Part shown: positions 6,319 through 34,053 of the stretch, piece by piece | Layout: each line of letters opens with the position of its first letter | Numbering within the stretch: position 1 is the stretch's first letter | IMG/VR virus record: IMGVR_UViG_2718218139_000003 | DNA length: 37,100 bases | Origin: a virus | Taxonomy: Duplodnaviria; Heunggongvirae; Uroviricota; Caudoviricetes | Reading direction: 5' to 3' (one strand) | Notes under the pieces: model-generated | What the model was told of the DNA's origin: nothing | Databases searched by the model: none | The model's input: the letters and a program-made list of their open reading frames with translations, nothing else | Program-made: the position numbers and the translations under genes

Positions 6319-9112
6319 TATCCGGGTCGCTTTCAGCGCCGTTGACAGGCTGACCCGGCCTGCCGAAAACGCCCGCCGCCTGATGGGGCAGTTTGGTGAC
6401 TCCATCCAGCGAACGCAGGGGGCGATCAAAAATCTCGAGCGTCAGGCGCGTTCATTTGAGCGCGCCCGTGACGCTGTCAGTAAAGCGGATGCTGGCATCG
6501 TGAAAGCACGACGCCAGCTTAACGCCCTTAATCAGTTACAACGCACGGGTACAGTACTCAGCGAAAAACAACAAAAGCTGATGCAGCAGTTAAGCACCCG
6601 GCTTGAACGCCTGAATGAATCGCGCACACGGGAAATTCAGAAAATGCGGGAGCTTGGCGGAGAGCTGAAACGCCACGGCATTTCCCTGACAGGCAGTGAT
6701 AACACCATCCAGCAGGCCATCAGACGCACCGAACAGTACAACAACCAGCTTGAACGCGAACGGCAGGCGCTTGCGCGTGTAACGCGGGCGCGTGAGCGGT
6801 ATTCGCGCGCGCAGGAAACAGCGGGAAAACTGAAAACAGGTGGTGCGCTGGCAATTGGTGCGGCAGCGGCGGGCGGCTATGCTGCCGGGCGTTTTTTGCA
6901 GCCTGCGATCGGGTTCGGCAAAGAGATGTCCCGCGTTCAGGCACTGACGCGAATCGACCAGAACAGCCCGCAGTTTAAGGCGCTGCGTGAGCAGGCGTTA
7001 AAACTTGGCTCTGAAACGCAGTTCACCGCAGGCGATGCCGCCAGTGGACAGGCATTTCTTGCAATGGCTGGCTTCACTCCGCAGGCCATTCAGGCTGCGC
7101 TTCCCGGCGTGCTGAGCATGGCAACGGCTGGCGGTATGGATCTCGGCGAGACGGCAGATATTGGCTCAAATATCCTGACGCAGTTCGGCCTTTCTGCTGA
7201 CCAGATGGACCGGGTCGGTGACACACTCACCGCAGCGTTTACCCGTACCAACACTGACCTTCGCGCACTGGGCGAAACCATGAAATATGCAGGTCCGGTG
7301 GCGGGTAAGCTGGGAATATCGCTGGAGCAGGCCGCAGCGATGGCTGGCGTGCTGGCGAATATGGGCATCAGAGGGAGTGATGCCGGGACGGCAATGCGTG
7401 CCAGCCTGGCTCGTCTGGCATCACCGCCAAAGGCGGCGGCAGAAGCTCTGAAAGAGCTGGGCGTGTCCGTCTCGGATGCCGGGGGCAAAATGCGCCCGAT
7501 GGAGGATGTGCTGGCCGACCTTTATAAAGCCACCCGCAAATACGGGGAAGTTGACCGGGTATCGTTCTTTAAGGACATTGCCGGAGAAGAGGCTTTCACA
7601 TCGTTTATGGCGCTCGTTGATGCAGCGGGTGACGGTTCCTTACCCAAACTGAGAAAAGAACTTGAAGGCGCGCGCGGTGAGGCTGAACGCACAGCAAAGG
7701 TTATGGCCAACAACCTTGACGGCGATCTGAAATCACTCGGCAGTGCATGGGAAGGGTTGCGCATCCGCATTGCAGATCTGATTGACGGTCCGCTGCGTTC
7801 TGTCACGCAGTGGCTCACGCGGGTGGTATCAAGGGTGACGGCGCTGGCGCAGGCCCATCCGGCACTGACGCGCCAGCTACTGATAGCAGGCGGTGCGTTG
7901 CTGGCAATGACTGCAACGGTTGGCTCGTTGTCGCTGGCTATTGGTGTGCTTGCTGGTCCGCTGGCAAAACTGCGTCTTGGTTTTTCTCTCCTGACCGGAT
8001 CAATGAATGCTGTCAGGGTCCTGCCAGCACTATGGGGAATGGTGACGGGTTCCGTTTCTTTACTGGGAGGCGCTATCGGGGCGCTGTTCAGTCCGGTTGG
8101 TCTTATCGTGGCTGCGCTTGCCGGAGCTGCCGTTCTTATCTGGAAATACTGGGATCCCATCAGGGCATTTTTTGCCGGGGTGTTCAGCGGGATTATGGAA
8201 AGGCTGACCCCGTTGCGCGAAACCTTTGAACGGTTTGGTCCTGTTTTTGACGCCATCGGAAGCGGGATCAGCCAGGTGTTTAACTGGTTTAAATCGCTGC
8301 TGTCACCGATGGAGTCCAGCAAGGAAACGCTGGATAAATGTACCAGTGCTGGCGAGATATTCGGTAACGTTCTTGGCGGTGCGTTACAGCTTGTTCTGAC
8401 ACCTGCAAAAATGTTGCTGGATACGCTGGCGTGGATACTTGAAAAGCTCGGTGTGCTTCCGGATGAAGCGGAAAGGGCGCGCAAGAAAATCGAAGACGCA
8501 CAGCGTGCGGCCATTCTTCAGGACAAGGTTGCCTTGCTTCAGGGGGACCTGGCGAAAATCAATCCGCCGAAGCCTGTGGAAAATGGCAATGGCACCGGAG
8601 GTGATAAACCCAAAGACAACAAACCGCTCACAGACAGCAATACCGGTACGCTACGCAGACTCAGCAAAATTGCTGATAACACAGGTAAGCTGGTTGATGA
8701 GACGAAAAAACGTATTGGCCCCGGCGATATTGTCTTTAAGAACCTGCCCCGCGCACTTGCTGTTCGTGGGGAGTGGCAGGAGCGGAAGATTGCGCAGGTC
8801 AGTAAGCCTGCTTCCGCAATCAACATCACACCCGTGGTCCCGACTCCTCTGCCTCCGGCGCTGGTCCCTGTTGTTGCGGCCAGCTCCCGCCCGGTGGCGG
8901 AGGCCATACGATCGCCAGTGGCATCAGTTCCTGCAGCTTCCCGTAATCGGGAGCCTGCTGTCTCCGGATTTGGCGGTGAAATTCATGTTCATCTGCATAA
9001 CGTTGTTACGCAGAATCCCCGCGAACTGGCGAAACTGGTCGGTGAAATGGTCAGGGCAGAAATGGAACGGCGCGCCCGTGCCGGGCGTGGCAGTTTTTAC
9101 GATAAAGATTGA
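6296..9112 (+). CDS. T: Tail tape measure protein (P2 gpT-like), 938 aa
   Basis: Long coiled-coil N-terminal region, glycine-rich TM-like central region, position after E/E'. Confidence 0.85.
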   Translation: MQIMKTLDIRVAFSAVDRLTRPAENARRLMGQFGDSIQRTQGAIKNLERQARSFERARDAVSKADAGIVKARRQLNALNQLQRTGTVLSEKQQKLMQQLSTRLERLNESRTREIQKMRELGGELKRHGISLTGSDNTIQQAIRRTEQYNNQLERERQALARVTRARERYSRAQETAGKLKTGGALAIGAAAAGGYAAGRFLQPAIGFGKEMSRVQALTRIDQNSPQFKALREQALKLGSETQFTAGDAASGQAFLAMAGFTPQAIQAALPGVLSMATAGGMDLGETADIGSNILTQFGLSADQMDRVGDTLTAAFTRTNTDLRALGETMKYAGPVAGKLGISLEQAAAMAGVLANMGIRGSDAGTAMRASLARLASPPKAAAEALKELGVSVSDAGGKMRPMEDVLADLYKATRKYGEVDRVSFFKDIAGEEAFTSFMALVDAAGDGSLPKLRKELEGARGEAERTAKVMANNLDGDLKSLGSAWEGLRIRIADLIDGPLRSVTQWLTRVVSRVTALAQAHPALTRQLLIAGGALLAMTATVGSLSLAIGVLAGPLAKLRLGFSLLTGSMNAVRVLPALWGMVTGSVSLLGGAIGALFSPVGLIVAALAGAAVLIWKYWDPIRAFFAGVFSGIMERLTPLRETFERFGPVFDAIGSGISQVFNWFKSLLSPMESSKETLDKCTSAGEIFGNVLGGALQLVLTPAKMLLDTLAWILEKLGVLPDEAERARKKIEDAQRAAILQDKVALLQGDLAKINPPKPVENGNGTGGDKPKDNKPLTDSNTGTLRRLSKIADNTGKLVDETKKRIGPGDIVFKNLPRALAVRGEWQERKIAQVSKPASAINITPVVPTPLPPALVPVVAASSRPVAEAIRSPVASVPAASRNREPAVSGFGGEIHVHLHNVVTQNPRELAKLVGEMVRAEMERRARAGRGSFYDKD

Positions 9113-9118
9113 GGAGTC

Positions 9119-9613
9119 ATGGCCATGATGATGATCTATGGCATGTTTGTTTTTGAGCTGCGCACACTGCCGCATCAGCAGTTACAGCAAAACAAAAGCT
9201 GGCGGCATGTGAAAAATGAACGCGTTAACCGTTCAGCAAGCTGGCAGTATATCGGTGCAGGTGATGATCGCATCGTTCTTTCTGGTGTGCTTTATCCTGA
9301 AATTACAGGTGGCGAAGTGTCGCTGTCGCTGCTGACCACGCAGGCGTATACAGGACGACCCTGGCCTTTGATTGATGGCGTCGGGCAGATTTACGGCATG
9401 TATGTCCTGACCGGAACGAATACGACCCGTTCCGAGTTTGATCGCTACGGTAAGGCGAAAAAGATAGAATTTTCACTGACTCTTGAACGCTGTGATGAGG
9501 ATTTGCGGGAGCGCCTGCAATCCTCATCGTTCAGCGATATGTTGTCCGGCTTCAAAGATAAGGTGACATCATCCCTTAATAGCGCGACCAGCTCAGTTAA
9601 GGGGCTGCTCTGA
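9119..9613 (+). CDS. U: Tail protein (P2 gpU-like)
   Basis: 164 aa, directly downstream of the tape measure. Confidence 0.7.
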   Translation: MAMMMIYGMFVFELRTLPHQQLQQNKSWRHVKNERVNRSASWQYIGAGDDRIVLSGVLYPEITGGEVSLSLLTTQAYTGRPWPLIDGVGQIYGMYVLTGTNTTRSEFDRYGKAKKIEFSLTLERCDEDLRERLQSSSFSDMLSGFKDKVTSSLNSATSSVKGLL

Positions 9614-9769
9614 TTTAACGTATGTCGCCAATTTCCTGATGAAGGTGACTGGCGACTTGCTGTTGTATGTCCTTCTCAGAAAATTGTTTTTGAATAACAA
9701 ACAACAGGATTTTATAATCTCTTAACCTTATAATATGTGTGGTCTGAAATAATAATTAAGGAGATTATC

Positions 9770-10342
9770 GTGCTGTCTTACTTAATGGCAATTCACTTTG
9801 TTTTATTTGGGAACTCTACTAATTTAAAAAACTTCTGGAAATATGAAGTAATTCGGCGGAAACGTATGGATATCTGGAGGCTTTTAAGAGAGAAAAAACA
9901 GCGTAACCGGAATTTCCTTTTCTGGTGGCGGTTGGCTAACGAAATGTATATTAATGGTAATAAATTACATAAGAAAGCAGCCAAAAAGTTAAACAGTAAA
10001 ATAATTAACAAATTTGGTTGTGAAATTGGATTGGGCGCAAATATTGGAAAAGGGTTAACAATTCCCCATCATGCTGGAATTGTTGTTCATTTTGCTGTTG
10101 ATGCTGGTGAAAATCTGGTGTTACGACAGAATACTACCATTGGACAGATAGATGGTGACATGCCTGGTTCAAGAGTAAAAATTGGTAGTAACGTTGATAT
10201 CGGAGCTAATTGTTGCATCATTGGATTATCACGTAAAATTGGGGATAATGTAAAAATAGGTGCAATGTCTTTTATAAATAAAGATATACCATCGAACTGC
10301 ACATATATAACTAAAAAGAGCGGTGTTGTATTGTATAAATAG
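9770..10342 (+). CDS. Hexapeptide-repeat acetyltransferase (CysE/WcaB/NodL-like left-handed beta-helix), AT-rich cargo gene
   Basis: Strong RBS taaggag 7 bp before GTG 9770; [LIV]-G-x-x-x-x-I hexapeptide repeats (IGANIGKGLTI, IGSNVDIGANCCIIG, IGDNVKIGAMSFI); markedly lower GC than flanking phage genes. Confidence 0.7.
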   Translation: MLSYLMAIHFVLFGNSTNLKNFWKYEVIRRKRMDIWRLLREKKQRNRNFLFWWRLANEMYINGNKLHKKAAKKLNSKIINKFGCEIGLGANIGKGLTIPHHAGIVVHFAVDAGENLVLRQNTTIGQIDGDMPGSRVKIGSNVDIGANCCIIGLSRKIGDNVKIGAMSFINKDIPSNCTYITKKSGVVLYK

Positions 10343-10350
10343 AGTACATA

Positions 10351-10385
10351 AAGCCATCTATATTTCTGTCGATGGCTTTTTCTCT
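10351..10385 (+). terminator. Rho-independent terminator (aagccatc...gatggctt + TTTTCTCTTT), potentially bidirectional between the acetyltransferase and G
   Basis: 8-bp stem followed by T-tract immediately after the acetyltransferase stop. Confidence 0.55.
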
Positions 10386-10964
10386 TTATTGTGGGGCGAC
10401 TGGCCACTCAACATCCGCTGCTACCGCTGTATTAACACGATTCAACAATACCCGGTATGTCTTCCATGCAGCCAGTAACGATGCCTCTTCCTCCGTTGCA
10501 ATATCCAAATCTACGGCATCCTGAAGTGGCGCAATATGCTCGCTGGCTACCTGCATCAGGCTGTTTTTTGTTTCTTCCGCCTCCCTTATCCGAAACAGTT
10601 TTTCTGCTTCTGCATCTTTCACCCAGGATGTGCCGTTCCACTTCTGATACTCTCCATCCGGCGACAACCAGGTAACATTTTCCGGTAATGGACCGAGTTC
10701 AGAAATAAATAACGAGTCCCCTGATGCCACGTCATAAACCGTTTTACCCCGATGGTCTTCAACGAGATGCCACGATGCCTCATCACTGTTGAAAACGGCC
10801 ACGAAGCCAGCCGGAATATCTGGCGGGGCAATATCGGTACTGTTTGCAGGCAGACCTGTATGAGGTGGAATGTATGCATCACCTTCACCAATAAACTCAT
10901 TGGTTCCGGTCAGTAGATTATAAATTTTTATGGTCCGTGATTGTTCACTCATTCTGAATGTCAT
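10386..10964 (-). CDS. G: Tail fibre assembly protein (P2 gpG / Tfa-like)
   Basis: 192 aa directly downstream of the tail fibre gene. Confidence 0.75.
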
Positions 10965-13101
10965 TATGCAAGCCTCACAATATAGTTAAATGCGATGTTT
11001 TTTACGGTGTTTTCTGCGTTCCCCGTAGCATTAACGGTGATGGTGTGTCCGTGGGGACCAATAATGACAGAATGGGCATGAGCACCAATGCCGATAGTGT
11101 GGTTATGGGCACCGATATATACATTGTGAGCATGCCCTCCTGCGCTCGACGTGGTACCAGTACCTAACGCAGCGTTATAACCGGCTGATACACCATTCCC
11201 CGCGCCAGTGTGACCAACAGGTATATTGTGTGAATGAGCTCCTGCGCTATTTGTGGTTTTTGTGCCGTAATCAAATGAACTGGTCGTTTTAGTACCGTAA
11301 TCAAACGACGATGTGGTTTTCGTCCCCAAATCAGTACTGGATGCGCTGGCGCTGTGGGTGTGCGATTTAATGCCGTCCTGTTCCTGAGACAATACGGCAC
11401 GACCACTGGCAGGTTTGCCCTTGATAGTCCAGCCACGCATATCAGGGATCACGCCTGACGGATAAGCGACTGCAAGTTTCGGGTATGCAGATTTGTCAAA
11501 AGTCTGCCCTTGCATCAGGGCATAACCAGACGGAACGGTATCTGATGGCCACGGAATCGGTGCACCGACTGGATAAAACTCTTCAGGAGGATGAGCCGAG
11601 GTGTAAAGCTGCGCCCACGGCGACCAGTTTGCGTCGGTCGTATCCCGTCGTGAACGAATAAATGCCGGAGCATGAGCACCGCTTATACCACTCCAGCCGA
11701 TGAGTAATTCGCCTTCGCCAACGGCTGTCATCCCTTTCAGGTGAATGATATTTCCATACGTTGTTGGATATCCGTTGTTATACGCCTCGTATAACTCCAG
11801 ACCTGTGGCCCCCTGCATATTATCTGTCAGGGCGGTCAGCCGACCTTTTGAAGCCAGATTAACTGACGATACTGCTGTCCCATCTGACGGTAACGCCCCG
11901 ATCTCTGATGCTGTTGGCTTATTCCTGGAGTTATAGTCCCTTCGCCAGCCAGGAGCATAAGCATCACCATGATTAATATAAGTAAATTGAGCATTAGGGA
12001 TGCCTTCACCGCTGGATGTACTCGGTGTGGTAATGCGTATGGTCATTGCGCCGCGGGTGCCAATAACTTCCACAACAGCACCTGCAAGACAAATATTTCC
12101 GCAACCTGTATCTGTAATGACCTTATTACTTGCATAAGCCCATGAGCCTTTGCACATCCAGTAAGGATGGTTAAATGCCCCCTGACTCTCTAGCCAAAAA
12201 ATCAACTGCGCAGTTGTCCATGCTTCACTATCTCCACCAATATTCAGCTCTGCACTATATGCACGGCAGGCACCGATATTTTTCGTAAAGGTGTCTTTGT
12301 CAGAGATATCCTCACCATTCTTAGCTTTCTGCAGACGTTTTTCAGCATTGTCATAGGCAGCTTTTACTGCATTTGATGTTGCCGCCAGCGTTTCAGATGT
12401 ACTGTTGGTTGCACTACTAAGCTGGACAAGGCCTTTTCGCGCTGTTGTTGCGTCCTGAGCGGTATATTTCCCGTTAGCAAGGTCATGTCATAGGCTGTCT
12501 TGACCGCTTTCGGCGTTGCGGCCAGTGCTTCAGACGTGCTGTTAGTGGCGCTACTGAGTTGAACAAAGCCTTTTGCGGTCAGCGAGGCGTCCGGGTGACG
12601 TCGTGACTGTTCATGTTCTTTCAGTTTGTCATTCACGTAATCCACTGTGGCCATCACCATGGTGTTATCCACGGTAAGCGCCACGGTAGCAGTGCTGGAT
12701 ACGGTCAGAATGGTGCGAAATGTTTGTGCACGTCCGGACCCCTCGGCAACGGTTGGTTTGTAACTTTCGGCAGTATTGCCCACCGCGATTAAATCGCCGT
12801 GCTCATCAAATACACCAATTTCCCGGATCCAGAATCCGCCCGTTTCAGGAGGAATAACCAGCTCCGCAATAATGCGGTTCTGATGTGTTGCGTCCAGGAT
12901 GACGCGATTAACAGTATGTCGCCACACCTCATGCACCAGACGGGTCTGCTTACTGTCTGGTGTGGGCAACGTGCCGCCACCGTCGCCCACGGCCATGTGA
13001 GTCAGGCGGACAGGATTACCATCTGGCGCGGCTGCCTGAGCTAATTTTTTGGCACCAGTATCAGTGATAATGGTTTTAAATTTTCGTGTTGTGGTACTCA
13101 T
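10964..13101 (-). pseudogene. H: Tail fibre protein (P2 gpH-like) disrupted by a 1-nt frameshift near 12477; N-terminal frame 12364-13101, C-terminal frame 10964-12500
   Basis: N-terminal ORF reads ...[15 protein letters not shown] then goes out of frame; the other frame continues ...[34 protein letters not shown]..., i.e. a second copy of the internal repeat; restoring one G rejoins the frames. Confidence 0.75.
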
Positions 13102-25406: not shown

Positions 25407-25814
25407 TTATCTTTTATAGCCTTGCCCCTTCCTGGCCAGCGCCCTGATGGCCGGGCGTGCCAACACCATATTTTGGCAATGATGAATTGCCCGGCAAAAT
25501 TCATCTCTACCCATTGGATGCTCAACTGGCAACGTTAAATACAGGTTCCATGCGTCGCCTAAAAGTTGGGCTATCTTTTGTTCTTCAGATGTCAGCAAGC
25601 AAGCGGTATCCGTAAAATAATCATACTTTTCATGTATGTTATTTAACGGTTTTGTCTGTAGTGCAGCCTGAGCTATACGGTATGCCTGAAGCATACTGGC
25701 GTCGTTGATATCCATTCCGAACGGAATTTCTGATGATTGTGACTCTGCATCTTCAAGCCTGGCAATTTCTTTACGTAAGAAGTATTTCAACTCTTGTTTC
25801 TGTTTTCTGTTCAT
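25407..25814 (-). CDS. Hypothetical protein, 135 aa, translationally coupled (4-bp overlap) to the upstream zinc-ribbon gene
   Basis: ORF with ATGA-type overlap; no recognised motif. Confidence 0.5.
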
Positions 25815-26143
25815 GCGTTTTTTTCCTTTTTGTCTGTCACTTCTTTCCTGATAATTTCATTGCACAAATCCACGCACTCATTGCAGATGTAAACAGACGG
25901 TCCGGCAATCACCTTTGTGACTTCGTACTGGGATTTATTGCAGAAACTGCAATAAACCGTCTTCTCGCCTGAAGTCCATGTTTTGCTGGTTTCGCCAGAC
26001 ATCAGTTGTTTGAGGTCTTTTTCACGACGAAGAACTATCTGGCCACATTCAGCTATTTTTTGGATGTTGACATTTTCTTCTTTCGCCAGCGCTTCCATCC
26101 GCTCAATCAGTCGCTGCGCTTTTTCTCTGTCAATGTGTTGCAT
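25811..26143 (-). CDS. Small protein with a C-terminal ClpX-type C4 zinc-binding domain (ZBD-like) fused to an unrelated helical N-terminus
   Basis: Residues about 63-100 [40 protein letters not shown] nearly match the ClpX N-terminal zinc-binding domain as I recall it ([39 protein letters not shown]); strong RBS aaggggga. Confidence 0.7.
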
Positions 26144-27512: not shown

Positions 27513-27626
27513 GTTTACGGGATTCTGAAATCCCGTTTTTGCCTGTTTTGTGCGCGCTTCATATATCGCTGCGCGTTTTTTGCTCATTTACGGGATTCGT
27601 GAGTCCCGTTTCTGTCTGTTTTTTGT
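27513..27626. repeat. Two about 41-bp direct repeats (27513-27553 and 27586-27626), each with the inverted repeat ACGGGA-N8-TCCCGT; candidate parC-like centromere/operator
   Basis: Seen directly; located immediately upstream of the ParM-like gene. Confidence 0.5.
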
Positions 27627-28023
27627 TTCCACTGGTCAGGCCACCCCGCAGCAGGTCTGCTTTGCGGCGGGCGCGTTCAGTGGTTTCACTGATTCTCTGT
27701 GCGTGCTCTGCGTCGCGGATGGCGCGCAGCATGTCAGAAAGCACGGTAACGGGTGTTTTCATGGTGTTCTGGTCCTGCTGAAGTGTGGATGCCAGGCGTG
27801 CGGCGGCTTCGGGGTCTGATGCCCCCAGCTGTTCCAGATAGCTGGCGACAGGGTTATGGCGGATCTCCGTGCTGCTTACGCCGTGATTACGGCTCAGGCG
27901 TTGCCAGAGCTGCGTGATTCGGCTGTCCGGGCGGGTATCCGGTTTGCGTACAATTTCAAATCCCTGCGGTGCAATGATGCTGCCGTCAACGTACAGACTG
28001 CCGCCCCGTAACAGGTGCAGCAT
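27559..28023 (-). CDS. Hypothetical protein, 154 aa; 3' end overlaps the second direct repeat, so the true extent is uncertain
   Basis: ORF only; weak RBS; low-complexity C-terminus. Confidence 0.3.
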   Translation of the reverse strand: MLHLLRGGSLYVDGSIIAPQGFEIVRKPDTRPDSRITQLWQRLSRNHGVSSTEIRHNPVASYLEQLGASDPEAAARLASTLQQDQNTMKTPVTVLSDMLRAIRDAEHAQRISETTERARRKADLLRGGLTSGNKKQTETGLTNPVNEQKTRSDI

Positions 28024-28332: not shown

Positions 28333-28635
28333 ATGAGCAGAAAAACCCAACGTTACTCTAAAGAGTTCAAAGCCGAAGCTGTCAGAACGGTTCTTGAAAA
28401 TCAACTTTCGATCAGTGAAGGCGCTTCCCGATTATCTCTTCCTGAAGGCACTTTAGGACAATGGGTTACCGCCGCCAGAAAAGGGCTCGGTACTCCTGGT
28501 TCCCGCACGGTGGCTGAACTGGAATCTGAAATTCTGCAACTGCGTAAGGCGTTAAATGAAGCTCGCCTTGAGCGAGATATATTAAAAAAAGCAACAGCGT
28601 ATTTTGCACAGGAGTCGCTGAAAAATACGCGTTAA
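28333..28635 (+). CDS. IS600-like transposase OrfA; A AAA AAA -1 frameshift site at 28584-28590
   Basis: Identical protein to 4384-4686. Confidence 0.8.
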   Translation: MSRKTQRYSKEFKAEAVRTVLENQLSISEGASRLSLPEGTLGQWVTAARKGLGTPGSRTVAELESEILQLRKALNEARLERDILKKATAYFAQESLKNTR

Positions 28636-28670
28636 TCGAACAATGGCGACAACAATTTCCCATTGAAGCG

Positions 28671-29489
28671 ATGTGTCAGGTATTTGGTGTATCCAGGAGC
28701 GGTTATTACAACTGGGTACAGCATGAACCCTCAGACAGAAAACAAAGTGATGAGCGGCTAAAACTGGAGATTAAGGTGGCACATATCCGCACTCGCGAAA
28801 CATATGGAACCCGGCGGCTCCAGACGGAGCTGGCAGAGAATGGCATCATCGTTGGTCGTGACCGACTGGCACGTCTTCGTAAGGAGCTAAGGCTACGCTG
28901 TAAGCAGAAACGCAAGTTCAGAGCGACTACGAACTCGAACCACAATCTGCCAGTTGCGCCAAATCTGCTGAACCAGACGTTCGCTCCTACAGCACCAAAT
29001 CAGGTCTGGGTGGCGGACCTGACGTATGTTGCCACACAGGAGGGATGGTTGTACCTCGCTGGCATCAAAGATGTTTATACGTGCGAAATTGTCGGCTACG
29101 CCATGGGAGAGCGCATGACAAAAGAGCTGACAGGTAAAGCCCTGTTTATGGCGCTCAGGAGCCAGCGCCCACCTGCCGGGCTAATCCACCACTCTGATCG
29201 AGGTTCACAGTACTGCGCATACGATTACCGGGTCATACAGGAGCAGTTTGGTCTGAAAACATCAATGTCGCGTAAAGGTAACTGTTACGACAACGCTCCG
29301 ATGGAAAGCTTCTGGGGAACGCTGAAAAATGAGAGCCTGAGCCACTATCGTTTTAATAACCGGGATGAAGCCATCTCAGTAATACGGGAATACATTGAGA
29401 TTTTCTACAATCGTCAGCGTCGTCACTCTCGTCTGGGGAATATCTCCCCGGCAGCCTTCAGGGAAAAATATCATCAGATGGCTGCTTAA
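28671..29489 (+). CDS. IS600-like transposase OrfB
   Basis: Identical protein to 3530-4348; frame open from 28572, overlapping orfA in -1 frame. Confidence 0.8.
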   Translation: MCQVFGVSRSGYYNWVQHEPSDRKQSDERLKLEIKVAHIRTRETYGTRRLQTELAENGIIVGRDRLARLRKELRLRCKQKRKFRATTNSNHNLPVAPNLLNQTFAPTAPNQVWVADLTYVATQEGWLYLAGIKDVYTCEIVGYAMGERMTKELTGKALFMALRSQRPPAGLIHHSDRGSQYCAYDYRVIQEQFGLKTSMSRKGNCYDNAPMESFWGTLKNESLSHYRFNNRDEAISVIREYIEIFYNRQRRHSRLGNISPAAFREKYHQMAA

Positions 29490-29532
29490 AAAAAGAACAA
29501 ATGGTAGTGTCCGCTATTGCCAGTACACCTCA

Positions 29533-31648
29533 GTGCTGGCCGTTCTTCCGGCTGTTCTGTCCCGTTGTTGTCCGTTTCCTGTACACGAGGACAGTTATTG
29601 CCACGAGTCCAAGGGGCGGCAGGGCCGCCCTGAAGGTCAAAACCATTTTCGCGGGCGCTGTCTTCCACTTCCGGTTTACGTCTTACCAGCTTCCAGTTAT
29701 CCGGATGCGTGCACACACGGGAGGATTCCCCGATGAATGGCGACCAGATCCCGTAAATCTGTACACTCTGTTCGCCGTAATCGTTCAGCTCATCTGCGAG
29801 GTCGTAGGCGGTGCGAATCAGGTAGTCCTTGCGCGGAACAAGTACGCCACCCTGTTTTTCAATGTAGGTGGCAAAACATCCGGCATCAGCGGCAGCGAGT
29901 ACCGCATCCATTGCGTCATCCTTCAGCCGTTGCGGGCCTTCCGGGTTGCGTGCCATCTGGCTGGCAAGGCGGCGGAGTTCACGCCACACCTGACGGGAGG
30001 GGATGCCAAAGAACTGGAACTGGCGGACCCGGTGAAGGCGCGCCCAGCCGATGGCGCGCTCCACACTCTCGGCCATTGATTTACCTGTTTCGTGTTCAAC
30101 GCGTGGCTTGCCCGTTTTCGGGTCGATGCCATCCACGGCACGGCTGTCCAGGTTTTTCCCTATGTAGGTGGCGATGTAGCTGGTCGGTGTGCCTTTTGAG
30201 CCGTCGACGTACTCCGCCTTAAAGCGTGGGGTAATATCATCACCCAGCTCGTGACGATCTTCCTGAATGGCAATATCGCGGGTGTGGGACACAATGGTGT
30301 CGATTTCTTCCGGATGTGCAAAGACCATCATATGCCAGTGCACGGTGCCGTCATGGTGAGGCTCCACCGTGCGGATGCCATACCAGCGCAGGCCGTCGCG
30401 GTTCAGTTTCTTGCGGACCGCCGCAAAAAACGTGTTAACCAGGTAATCACTGGAGTCGCGCATGGTGGCCCCGTTCCATTTGGGATTCGGATGACCGTTC
30501 TCTGTTGTGGCGTGGTATTTTGACGGGCAGGTGACAGTCAGAAACACCGCTCTGTCGCCACGGGCTTCGGCCAGAAGTTCCAGCCCCTTCATGGTGGCCA
30601 TCATTTCTGCCTTACGGTGAACCGGGTTACTTACTCCCGCGTAATACACCGTTTCGAGATCAATCGTGAACCCATCTTCATTTTCCAGCATGAAACTTTT
30701 CAGGAAATCGCGTGTTTTCTCGCGCTGTGCGCGAAACTCGCTTAACGCGTCCTGGCTCAGATAGGGTGATGTTTTTCTGGAAACCAGACAGGCGGCGCGG
30801 AGTTGTTCTTCTCTCCACTCGCAACGTAACAGCCACAGTTTGCGTTTCCACCATTCCGCACAGGTCAGGCGAAGGATTGCGCCCGGCAGCAGCTCCGTGT
30901 CCGGTTCGTTCCTCCGGTCTTTGTCTGTTGTCAGTGCGTCATAATGCGGAGGCATGGCGTGCAGGTGTAACGCCATGCGGGCCAGCATTTGATACGCCTT
31001 CAGCGTTACATCCATGGTCAGCTCGCCATCAGTCGCGCCAAAGCCATCGCAGAGTTTTTCGAAGGTGCTGCTGAACATCGCCGCCGTCATGGTGGCCAGC
31101 GTCTGTATCTGGTGCTTGTTGAGCTGCGGCAGGTAAAGCAAATCGTCCAGGCGTTCGCGTCCGGCAAGGGAGCGATAACCCGGTGTCAGCCAGCGGTGGT
31201 CGGTGCGGTCCAGACGTTCGAATATTTTGCGCAGGGTTCCGCGCGCGTAGCGTTCAGCCTGCCAGCTCTTTTTGCCTTTCCGGCGATCGGCTTCCTGTTT
31301 TTTGCGCAGGAAGGAGAGGTGGCGAATAAGCGGATCGCGCAGATAGGACGGCAGCAGGCGCAGCGAGGCCATGGCTTCATCCACCGCACCGCGTGCCTGT
31401 TTTCTGGCGTCTCCTGCCAGTGTGATGGTTTTGTCCTGTTTTTCCTGTGCGTCCAGGCTTTTATTAATCAGGTTGCCCAGCGGCGTGGCGGAGAATGCCG
31501 CATCAGCCATTTCCTGGCGGCGCTCGTTCTCTGCCCGGTAGGCATCCAGCCAGGAGGAAAGCGCGGATTCAGGAGCGGGGATCCCCGTTCCTTCACGCCC
31601 CACTGCGTGGCGCGGTTGTTGCCAGTCCCTGATGTACTCTGCCGTCAT
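29533..31648 (-). pseudogene. A: Rolling-circle replication initiation protein (P2 gpA-like), N-terminal 705 codons; interrupted near the 3' end by IS600
   Basis: HUH-type motif HDGTVHWHMMVF; size about 766 aa when rejoined with 28084-28268. Confidence 0.75.
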
Positions 31649-33430: not shown

Positions 33431-33847
33431 CTATGCGTTAAATACGGCACGTTGCGCGTCATCAATGAATACAGCTTGAGAGCGTTCTATCAGGCGGAGA
33501 TTTGTCAGAAGCTCTGACTCTTTTGTGTGGTAAGGCGTTATCAGGTATTTGCCGTGCAGTTCGGCAATAATGGTGTATCGCAGCATCATTGCTGAACCAA
33601 GAATATAAATGCAGCGTCCAATGCTGGACGGATTCATGGCTGCAACTGTTGACTGTGTTTTAAGAGTGTCGATTTCTTTGCTCTGTTCCTCAATAATTTT
33701 GGCTGCTTCAGAGGTGGCTATTGCGATGGTCAGTGCGTAAAGCGCTGCCATATGTTGATTATCTTTCTGGGCTGCCCTGGACAGCTTGTCTTGCTCTGCT
33801 GACACTATTTTTAATGTATTGATAATATTTTTTTCTTTTGCGTTCAT
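33431..33847 (-). CDS. Hypothetical coiled-coil protein, 138 aa
   Basis: ORF; AT-rich codon usage suggests acquired gene. Confidence 0.45.
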   Translation of the reverse strand: MNAKEKNIINTLKIVSAEQDKLSRAAQKDNQHMAALYALTIAIATSEAAKIIEEQSKEIDTLKTQSTVAAMNPSSIGRCIYILGSAMMLRYTIIAELHGKYLITPYHTKESELLTNLRLIERSQAVFIDDAQRAVFNA

Positions 33848-33939
33848 TTTATATCTCCGTTATTTACGTGTGCGAATACCTCCGCGAATGCGGATAGTTT
33901 TCAGGTTTTCGGGTTTAATCTGGTGTTTTGTTTAAGCTG

Positions 33940-34053
33940 TTATTTGTCAGTGAAAAAGCGTTCAATCTTTTTTACTGAATGAATAATTCGCATAATCCCA
34001 ATGGCGCAGGCCACCGAAATAATCAGAACAAGCCATGAGATAAATATACTCAT
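33940..34053 (-). CDS. Small hydrophobic peptide, 37 aa (MSIFISWLVLIISVACAIGIMRIIHSVKKIERFFTDK), translationally coupled to the upstream gene
   Basis: RBS GGGGA 7 nt before ATG; ATGA overlap with the stop of 34050-34292; single predicted TM helix. Confidence 0.4.
   Translation of the reverse strand: MSIFISWLVLIISVACAIGIMRIIHSVKKIERFFTDK

Follow-up and report, generated by a model that had tools for sequence, protein, structure and literature searches.

What does a small, AT-rich acetyltransferase gene do at the end of the tail fibre operon of a decayed prophage, and which molecule would its product modify? The question is raised by positions 9614-10385 of the IMG/VR record IMGVR_UViG_2718218139_000003, a stretch of 37,100 nucleotides that we analysed as a whole and refer to as the window. 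The window is an Escherichia coli prophage that belongs to the P88-like genus Xuanwuvirus (Peduoviridae, P2-related), and the gene is flanked by the tail gene U and the tail fibre assembly gene tfa. On balance, we favour the reading that it is a moron encoding a soluble acetyltransferase, which would be expressed in the lysogen and O-acetylate a lipid-linked envelope glycan, with the lipid A-core as the best candidate. This would amount to lysogenic conversion of the lipopolysaccharide (LPS).

An AT-rich gene between U and tfa

The acetyltransferase coding sequence (CDS) has a GC content of 0.344, with 0.30 at third codon positions (GC3), and the 772-bp island 9614-10385 around it has 0.341. 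These values compare with 0.50 for U, 0.57 for the tape-measure gene, 0.48 for tfa and 0.526 for the whole window, and the two 500-bp segments over the gene are the lowest in GC of the entire 37 kb. In its longest form, the open reading frame (ORF) in the ORF listing spans 9737-10342 on the plus strand. We dropped the start at 9737 in favour of a GTG at 9770, because AAGGAG stands 6 nt before it, homologues share this start codon and the RefSeq CDS is 573 nt long. In the alignment, the P1-like alleles have an ATG at this position. The features of the locus, in window coordinates, are as follows.

9119-9613, plus strand: gpU-like tail gene on the left of the island (assigned to PHROG 76, tail protein, with E = 7e-75)
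9623-9656, plus strand: hairpin directly 3' of U (folding 9605-9680 as RNA gave a centroid of -21.2 kcal/mol with z = -4.30, a stability that 0 of 200 shuffles reached)
9690-9718, plus strand: putative sigma-70-like promoter, TTGAAT-17-TATAAT (10 of 12 consensus positions)
9758-9763, plus strand: Shine-Dalgarno sequence AAGGAG, spaced 6 nt from the start codon (read directly; conserved in the allele alignment)
9770-10342, plus strand: acetyltransferase CDS, 573 nt, 190 aa (N-terminal helical domain of about 80 aa, then left-handed beta-helix)
10350-10390, no strand assigned: hairpin terminator that separates the convergent acetyltransferase and tfa genes (folding energy -17.5 kcal/mol with z = -4.75; 0 of 200 shuffles equal)
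10386-10964, minus strand: tail fibre assembly gene tfa, of the lambda Tfa / P2 G type (PHROG 105, E = 1.7e-96)
10964-11577, minus strand: 3' end of the tail fibre gene H (C-terminal tip, about 204 codons), in the transferable module with tfa and the acetyltransferase gene

The acetyltransferase and tfa genes converge and are 43 bp apart. The terminator between them has a 9-bp GC-containing stem, in which 10350-10358 pairs with 10371-10379, followed by UUCUCUUUAUU; this U-rich tail is on the plus strand and overlaps the tfa stop codon. The hairpin was found by folding, though it was absent from the output of a simple consensus scan. The hairpin directly behind U is a candidate terminator of the FI-U tail operon and would insulate the acetyltransferase gene from late transcription. 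As read from the alignment, the promoter-like site is conserved in one related contig (L144) and partly in three more (L135, L142 and L143). The P1-like alleles differ in their upstream region and have a TTGACA...TAAAAT of their own there. Tandem repeats of the kind that underlie phase variation of neuO were not present in 9500-10500, and an Rfam scan of 9400-10600 returned nothing in the leader or in the acetyltransferase gene. Its sole significant match, IS009 (RF02111), lies in the 3' part of the tfa CDS, on the coding strand (10423-10600, minus strand, 161 bits against a gathering threshold of 117).

The insertion is best seen against related phages. The tape-measure and U region of the window is 96-97% identical to P88, P884B11, 500465-2 and Citrobacter phiSM, and E. 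coli E2865 is annotated with the same arrangement, beside tRNA-Leu. For U itself, the match to P88, P884B11 and phiSM (96-97% identity) stops at query position 920, which is window position 9619, and homology to P88-like phages without the acetyltransferase ends at about this point. In P88, P884B11 and phiSM, the gap between U and tfa is occupied by a gene for a DNA invertase together with an alternative fibre tip and another tfa, and an acetyltransferase gene is absent. In the window, the whole of the invertase and the alternative fibre arm has been replaced by the acetyltransferase gene, and no inverted repeats are left. The FI-U genes on the plus strand, facing the fibre genes, are the usual Xuanwuvirus layout and are found alike in P88, P884B11 and phiSM; with this shared orientation and no inverted repeats in the window, a recent inversion junction is ruled out. 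Over 11930-12321, the window fibre gene matches the alternative fibre arms of P88 and the P1-like phage JL22 (L165 6655-7046; L003 4061-4452) in the inverted orientation, with 88% identity. The fibre gene looks like the frozen product of an invertible segment that has lost its invertase and repeats.

A moron in the sense of Hendrix and Juhala is an extra gene of unusual composition that has a promoter and a terminator to itself and separates genes which, in related phages, are adjacent or have other contents between them. The acetyltransferase gene matches this description: it is absent at this site from P88, P884B11 and phiSM, has a GC content of 0.34, and is flanked by a promoter-like site and a terminator hairpin. 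The initial annotation had described a gene of clearly lower GC than its neighbours between U and G, with its own ribosome binding site (RBS) and terminator, and all of this holds (0.34 against 0.50-0.57; AAGGAG; hairpin z = -4.75). The promoter-like site and the hairpin behind U go beyond it. That annotation had further placed the gene either where P2 carries Z/fun or at an inversion junction. The first placement is right relative to G, as P2 fun(Z) is likewise convergent with G, while the second falls with the FI-U orientation being typical of the P88-like genus.

A predicted acetyltransferase of the CysE/WcaB branch

Several searches place the protein in the left-handed beta-helix (hexapeptide-repeat) acyltransferase superfamily. 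The best NCBIfam models, with E-values down to 4e-21, all score under their cutoffs: EpsC with 75 bits against 150, cysE with 62 against 211 (E = 8e-17) and WcaB with 54 against 195. Pfam Hexapep falls just short of its cutoff (24 against 27 bits, E = 2.9e-5), the best solved-structure matches in a PDB sequence search are serine acetyltransferases (E = 1e-12), and PHROGs assigns the protein to phrog_2154, 'unknown function' (E = 1e-87). We used hhalign to compare a 40-member family alignment with E. coli K-12 CysE and WcaB. The family aligned to WcaB with a probability of 99.6 (E = 1.6e-23, 35% identity), and to CysE with a probability of 98.9 (E = 2.2e-17, 27% identity) from CysE residue 112 only. 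A pairwise comparison with WcaB gave 35% identity over 109 aa (E = 9e-16). WcaB is the nearest characterised relative, closer than CysE (hhalign E = 1.6e-23 versus 2.2e-17).

The catalytic pair of CysE, D143 and H158, corresponds to E85 and H100 in the window protein. H100 is conserved in at least 90% of the 40 family members, and position 85 is either D or E. The protein therefore looks like an active acetyltransferase of the CysE/WcaB branch, in agreement with its initial annotation as a CysE/WcaB-like hexapeptide acetyltransferase. An AlphaFold2 model built from the 40-sequence alignment (pLDDT 76, with 46-75 in the beta-helix part) has five N-terminal helices followed by short beta-strands over residues 96-170. 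We do not lean on this model because the Foldseek search with it against the PDB was non-significant, yielding no match below E = 0.001; the top hits were serine acetyltransferases with TM scores of 0.3-0.4.

RefSeq names the gene serine O-acetyltransferase, an annotation that is found in thousands of genomes. If the name were right, the gene would be a genuine serine O-acetyltransferase and an auxiliary metabolic gene, raising the supply of O-acetylserine and cysteine in the lysogen or during phage growth. The PDB and NCBIfam cysE matches and the retained catalytic Asp/His pair are in line with the name, and CysE (TIGR01172; PDB 1T3D, 6WYE, 4N69) shares the fold class. The membership tests argue against it. 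The protein scores 61.7 bits with TIGR01172, whose cutoff is 210.65, and 36.8 with PRK11132, whose cutoff is 397, which is 3- to 10-fold too low, and no SATase_N domain was matched in Pfam at E <= 1.

The CysE residues that bind serine or cysteine, D157, R192 and H193, are not conserved either. D157 aligns to P99, a position that is variable in the family, and the R192/H193 loop aligns to the non-conserved residues 134-135. The fourth substrate residue of CysE, D92, lies in the N-terminal region that cannot be aligned. The C-terminal extension that binds CysK is missing: the alignment stops at CysE residue 236, after which the query continues for 11 residues and CysE for 37. The CysE numbering was placed on a sequence that we take to be correct; its length is right, and each published residue matches the letter expected there.

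With WcaB the closer relative, and with neighbours of the family that are LPS and glycan genes and never cys genes, we regard a role in serine metabolism as very unlikely. Judged from its sequence, the protein is a CysE/WcaB-branch acetyltransferase but no serine acetyltransferase, and the name on the gene is probably wrong. The initial annotation had considered that the protein might group with housekeeping CysE and be foreign to other phages; the profile scores separate it from CysE, and the gene is strongly phage-associated. The scores do not make it a WcaB equivalog (54-55 bits against 194.65 / 196), and it lies in a prophage, outside the wca cluster.

Genomic context of relatives

To what, then, would the enzyme transfer acetyl groups? 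In Leminorella grimontii (L006), the acetyltransferase gene stands in the waa core operon, after genes for two glycosyltransferases (GT4 and GT8), WaaY and an unnamed ORF, and convergent with the O-antigen ligase gene WaaL. A GT2 gene ends 5 nt before the homologue in Pseudomonas (L008), with WbpA- and WbpB-like genes following. An MsbA-like transporter and a weak match to the WaaP kinase family adjoin the one in Halopseudomonas (L007), and the Intestinirhabdus homologue directly borders on the arn/ugd genes of lipid A modification. Prophages show similar pairings. The acetyltransferase forms a two-gene moron with Glyco_transf_25 at the tail fibre of Xenorhabdus prophages and with Glyco_transf_9 in a Morganella prophage, and in two phage contigs (L150 and L151) an HtrL_YibB gene lies between the acetyltransferase gene and tfa. 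GT25, GT9 and HtrL_YibB are LPS-core-type families.

This context points to a surface glycan as the target, and to LPS specifically. The proposal that the enzyme could modify surface polysaccharide is thereby supported, by the waa-cluster relative and the GT25, GT9 and HtrL_YibB partners, with the acceptor itself being what we infer from them.

Some other neighbours recur. An ORF of 258-261 aa lies directly upstream of the acetyltransferase gene in three chromosomal contexts (L006 5132-5908, L013 5013-5798 and L009 5188-5973), with a weak MptE-like Pfam match in two of the three; it may be a conserved partner, perhaps glycosyltransferase-like. HicA/HicB genes are found directly upstream of homologues in two unrelated prophages (phiNP, L196 643-1835; Morganella, L189 4068-5436), as is a Hok/Gef gene at the end of an HP1-like prophage beside copA (L174-L178 6662-7573). 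In Pantoea, a JetD gene and insertion sequence (IS) elements are found in the vicinity of the homologue.

Neighbours of the latter kind bear on a second alternative, in which the gene serves as cargo of the P2 'Z/fun' hotspot for defence or counter-defence inside the cell, and its product acetylates a protein, nucleotide, small molecule, xenobiotic or antibiotic instead of an envelope glycan. The G-FI locus of P2 is a known defence hotspot whose occupant in P2, fun(Z), blocks T5, and the HicAB and Hok/Gef modules and the Pantoea setting would suit such cargo. For the protein itself, PADLOC returned 0 families even at E <= 1, sequence comparison found no similarity to Fun(Z), and no xenobiotic acetyltransferase (Cat/Vat) model in NCBIfam matched. 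Its similarity is to the WcaB/CysE branch and its partners are LPS glycosyltransferases, which makes a defence function unlikely in our view.

Linkage to tfa and transfer between phages

We determined how often the gene occurs in 5426 complete E. coli genomes. The acetyltransferase island was found in 529 of them, contiguous with tfa in 528 and with U in 494. As U of the window type is present in 1378 genomes and lambda-type tfa in 4375, the acetyltransferase is optional for both the backbone and the chaperone. Where it is present in E. coli, it essentially always adjoins tfa. The remaining copies are mostly carried by P1-like phage-plasmids of ~90-100 kb (66 plasmid places; 35 PLSDB records). 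Where it could be checked, the initial interpretation of the gene as a surface-modifying neighbour of the tail fibre survives, with any effect on phage adsorption being putative.

In the P1-like JL22 and Ro157c2YLVW, the acetyltransferase gene lies between two convergent tfa genes, and that of JL22 is part of the invertible C segment, which is bounded by inverted repeats of 602 bp. Both are 94% identical to window positions 9778-11577, a module of 1.8 kb that starts at codon 4 of the acetyltransferase gene, includes tfa and covers the terminal 613 nt of H. Another contig (L135) shares window positions 9688-11573 at 88% identity, and its junction on the fibre side is the same as in the P1-like phages. 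On a third backbone (L143), the acetyltransferase gene lies beside a lambda-Stf-type fibre, with umuDC-like genes beyond. These shared stretches and the third backbone show that fibre tip, Tfa and acetyltransferase are exchanged as a unit among P2-, P1- and lambda-type phages.

The arrangement extends to distant relatives. When the family is clustered at 90% identity, the acetyltransferase gene is convergent with a Tfa gene within 100 bp in 12 of the 38 clusters, including those of Hafnia phage yong2 and E. coli phage 613R2 (both 37% identity) and of C. rodentium phiNP (44%). One further cluster has a partner gene between the two, and in two more Tfa is encoded upstream in the same direction. 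By these sequence comparisons, the association of acetyltransferase and Tfa is older than the single 94% cassette.

So tight a linkage, with co-transfer of the tip, might also be expected if the enzyme acted in the virion, modifying the tail fibre or Tfa or assisting the assembly of this fibre tip. The gene is, however, convergent to the fibre operon and has its own sigma-70-like promoter and terminator. Lambda-type tfa mostly occurs without an acetyltransferase in the 4375 genomes that have it, and relatives of the enzyme are found in waa clusters, on plasmids and as chromosomal orphans that have no phage genes nearby. A virion role seems to us highly improbable.

Selection in a decayed prophage

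Of 42 distinct 573-nt alleles, 31 were compared with the window allele, and none has an internal stop. Values of dN/dS against the window allele are 0.02-0.26, out to 71% amino acid identity, with the lone exception of 0.53 for a pair with a dS of 0.008. The acetyltransferase is under purifying selection.

It is intact though the window prophage has decayed, and the same is true of O157:H7 EDL933, where only a remnant of the prophage exists. Two IS3-family copies, each with ORFs of 100 and 272 aa, lie in the window at 3530-4686 (minus strand) and 28333-29489 (plus strand). The first truncates the tail-sheath gene, of which the C-terminal part (4751-5212) is left; D and ogr are missing nearby, and a DNA methylase gene and a major facilitator superfamily (MFS) gene are in their place. 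The second splits replication gene A into 27559-28023 and 29486-31648. The fibre gene H (10964-13101, minus strand) is frameshifted into ORFs 12364-13101 and 10964-12205. It is 2138 nt long, against 2133 nt in the intact and 97% identical allele of E. coli E2865, and is either a pseudogene or the product of a sequencing error. Two other 500-bp segments of the window are low in GC, 25501-26000 (0.418) and 33501-34000 (0.406), and may mark further foreign cargo genes.

Comparison with known systems

WcaB of E. coli colanic acid synthesis (TIGR04016 / PRK10191) resembles the window protein as a short hexapeptide-repeat enzyme. Both have the common active-site stretch 'FG-x-EI ... TI-x-HH', and both end right after the beta-helix. 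WcaB acts in the cytoplasm on a sugar linked to undecaprenyl pyrophosphate (Und-PP), as its annotation implies acetylated Und-PP intermediates, and it is the model for the mechanism proposed here. Unlike WcaB, the window protein has a longer, distinct N-terminal helical domain with a family-specific FWWRLANE motif, and its family is carried by phages and plasmids, outside the colanic acid cluster.

In function, the nearest precedents are O-acetyltransferases of prophages, among them NeuO of prophage CUS-3, which acts on the K1 capsule. It is likewise a hexapeptide-repeat O-acetyltransferase of a prophage, encoded directly beside the gene for the receptor-binding tailspike. NeuO, said to have been described by Deszo et al. 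in 2005, is reportedly a cytoplasmic beta-helix enzyme that brings about lysogenic conversion of the surface glycan recognised by its own phage. It differs in belonging to another beta-helix subfamily (Maa/LacA/NodL-type) and shares similarity with the window protein at the level of the repeats only (E = 2e-4 over 42 aa). The neuO gene is also phase-variable through a heptanucleotide tract, whereas the window gene has no tandem repeat.

Other lysogenic conversion cargo genes encode NeaT, Oac and GtrC, which are integral-membrane enzymes of the periplasmic side (PF01757). The window protein is small and soluble with a beta-helix, and no match to PF01757, the multi-pass membrane domain Acyl_transf_3, was found in the Pfam search. 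The gene neaT, an acyltransferase moron of a P2-like prophage, occupies the same 'moron position 2' downstream of G (PMC3573123). Both neaT and fun(Z) share this slot with the window gene and are transcribed against the tail genes. As NeaT is of a different, membrane-bound family, it was ruled out as a family member, and Fun(Z) is unrelated in sequence.

A proposed model of lysogenic conversion

The mechanism that we favour would start from a single foreign gene, with its own promoter, RBS and terminator, at the end of the tail fibre operon of a defective P88-like prophage. In the lysogen, its transcription would proceed apart from that of the late genes. Its product would be a soluble, acetyl-CoA-dependent enzyme that O-acetylates a sugar on a lipid-linked glycan at the cytoplasmic face of the inner membrane. 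Since such an enzyme reaches lipid-linked glycans only before they are flipped, the substrate would be the lipid A-core or an Und-PP-linked repeat unit at the inner face. The former is the best candidate, and the latter an alternative, as for WcaB. The outcome would be an altered LPS on the lysogen. A plausible further effect is that the receptor or co-receptor of the adjoining fibre tip would be masked, as well as that of competing LPS-binding phages.

The fibres of P1, P2 and Mu recognise the LPS core. An enzyme that modifies the core would thus fit well beside fibre genes, where it may provide superinfection exclusion or protect progeny from debris. We tentatively extend this to a doubtful but possible proposal, in which fibre tip, chaperone and acetyltransferase are a portable 'bind-and-mask' cassette, the LPS core is acetylated, and lysogens and debris escape binding by the very tip that the cassette encodes. 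Such a coupling would account for the joint movement of the three parts across P2-, P1- and lambda-type phages and for an arrangement that recurs down to 37% identity.

The same chemistry could instead have been selected for the fitness or virulence of the host, through antigenic change, resistance to serum, bile or antimicrobial peptides, or colonisation, with the fibre-side location being a permissive site. Several observations suit this. The gene is intact in remnants that cannot form virions (the window and EDL933), it appears to be enriched among the listed genomes of Shiga toxin-producing E. coli (STEC) O26, O111, O103 and O157, and orphan chromosomal copies exist. A homologue is located downstream of bfp on the EAF plasmid of enteropathogenic E. 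coli (EPEC), and fitness in bacteraemia is promoted by neaT, the occupant of the corresponding P2 slot (PMC3573123). Host fitness leaves unexplained why the gene travels with one fibre tip and tfa, with the same junction, across P1-, P2- and lambda-like phages, and why convergent adjacency to Tfa recurs down to 37% identity. We consider this reading fairly unlikely and, at the same time, a serious alternative to phage exclusion.

A number of points weigh against conversion of LPS by this enzyme. To our knowledge, O-acetylation is not well known or established as a modification of the LPS core in E. coli. The lambda-Stf-type tip is generally tied to OmpC, which is a protein, so that masking by acetylation of a sugar may not apply. 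The promoter is putative, a match to the consensus only, and the moderate structural model (pLDDT 76), with its non-significant structure search, would be of no use beyond the fold class. Many relatives are orphans between housekeeping genes or are carried on plasmids that have no glycan genes nearby. Among them, on EPEC EAF-type plasmids (L179-L183, gene 7001-7594), a homologue of 50% identity lies downstream of bfp-like T2SSE, T2SSF and prepilin peptidase genes, among IS66 elements. As the P2 G-FI locus, or the site downstream of tail fibre genes, is a general hotspot for cargo that includes defence systems (hotspot review), adjacency to the fibre may reflect a permissive site and hitch-hiking. 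Our literature search found no functional study of the family and no assay of an acetylated molecule or of an effect on adsorption. In previous reports, the function of the acetyltransferase was declared unknown (PMC9603915) and the gene was listed as a generic 'fitness' factor (PMC6456863).

Significance

Lysogenic conversion acetyltransferase morons are known as a kind. What our analysis adds is that the name on this one is probably wrong, that its family is associated with LPS and other glycan genes, and that it travels as a module with a fibre tip. Roughly a tenth of the complete E. coli genomes carry the gene, among them O157:H7 EDL933 and the O26, O111 and O103 STEC listed, and it is also found on P1-like phage-plasmids. 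If an effect on the envelope is absent, the tight linkage to tfa needs another explanation. If acetylation of LPS is true, the family would be a so far overlooked cause of heterogeneity in the LPS of major pathogens and a determinant of phage susceptibility that is relevant to phage therapy and typing. It would also be an example of receptor-binding and receptor-modifying functions that are exchanged between phages as one module.

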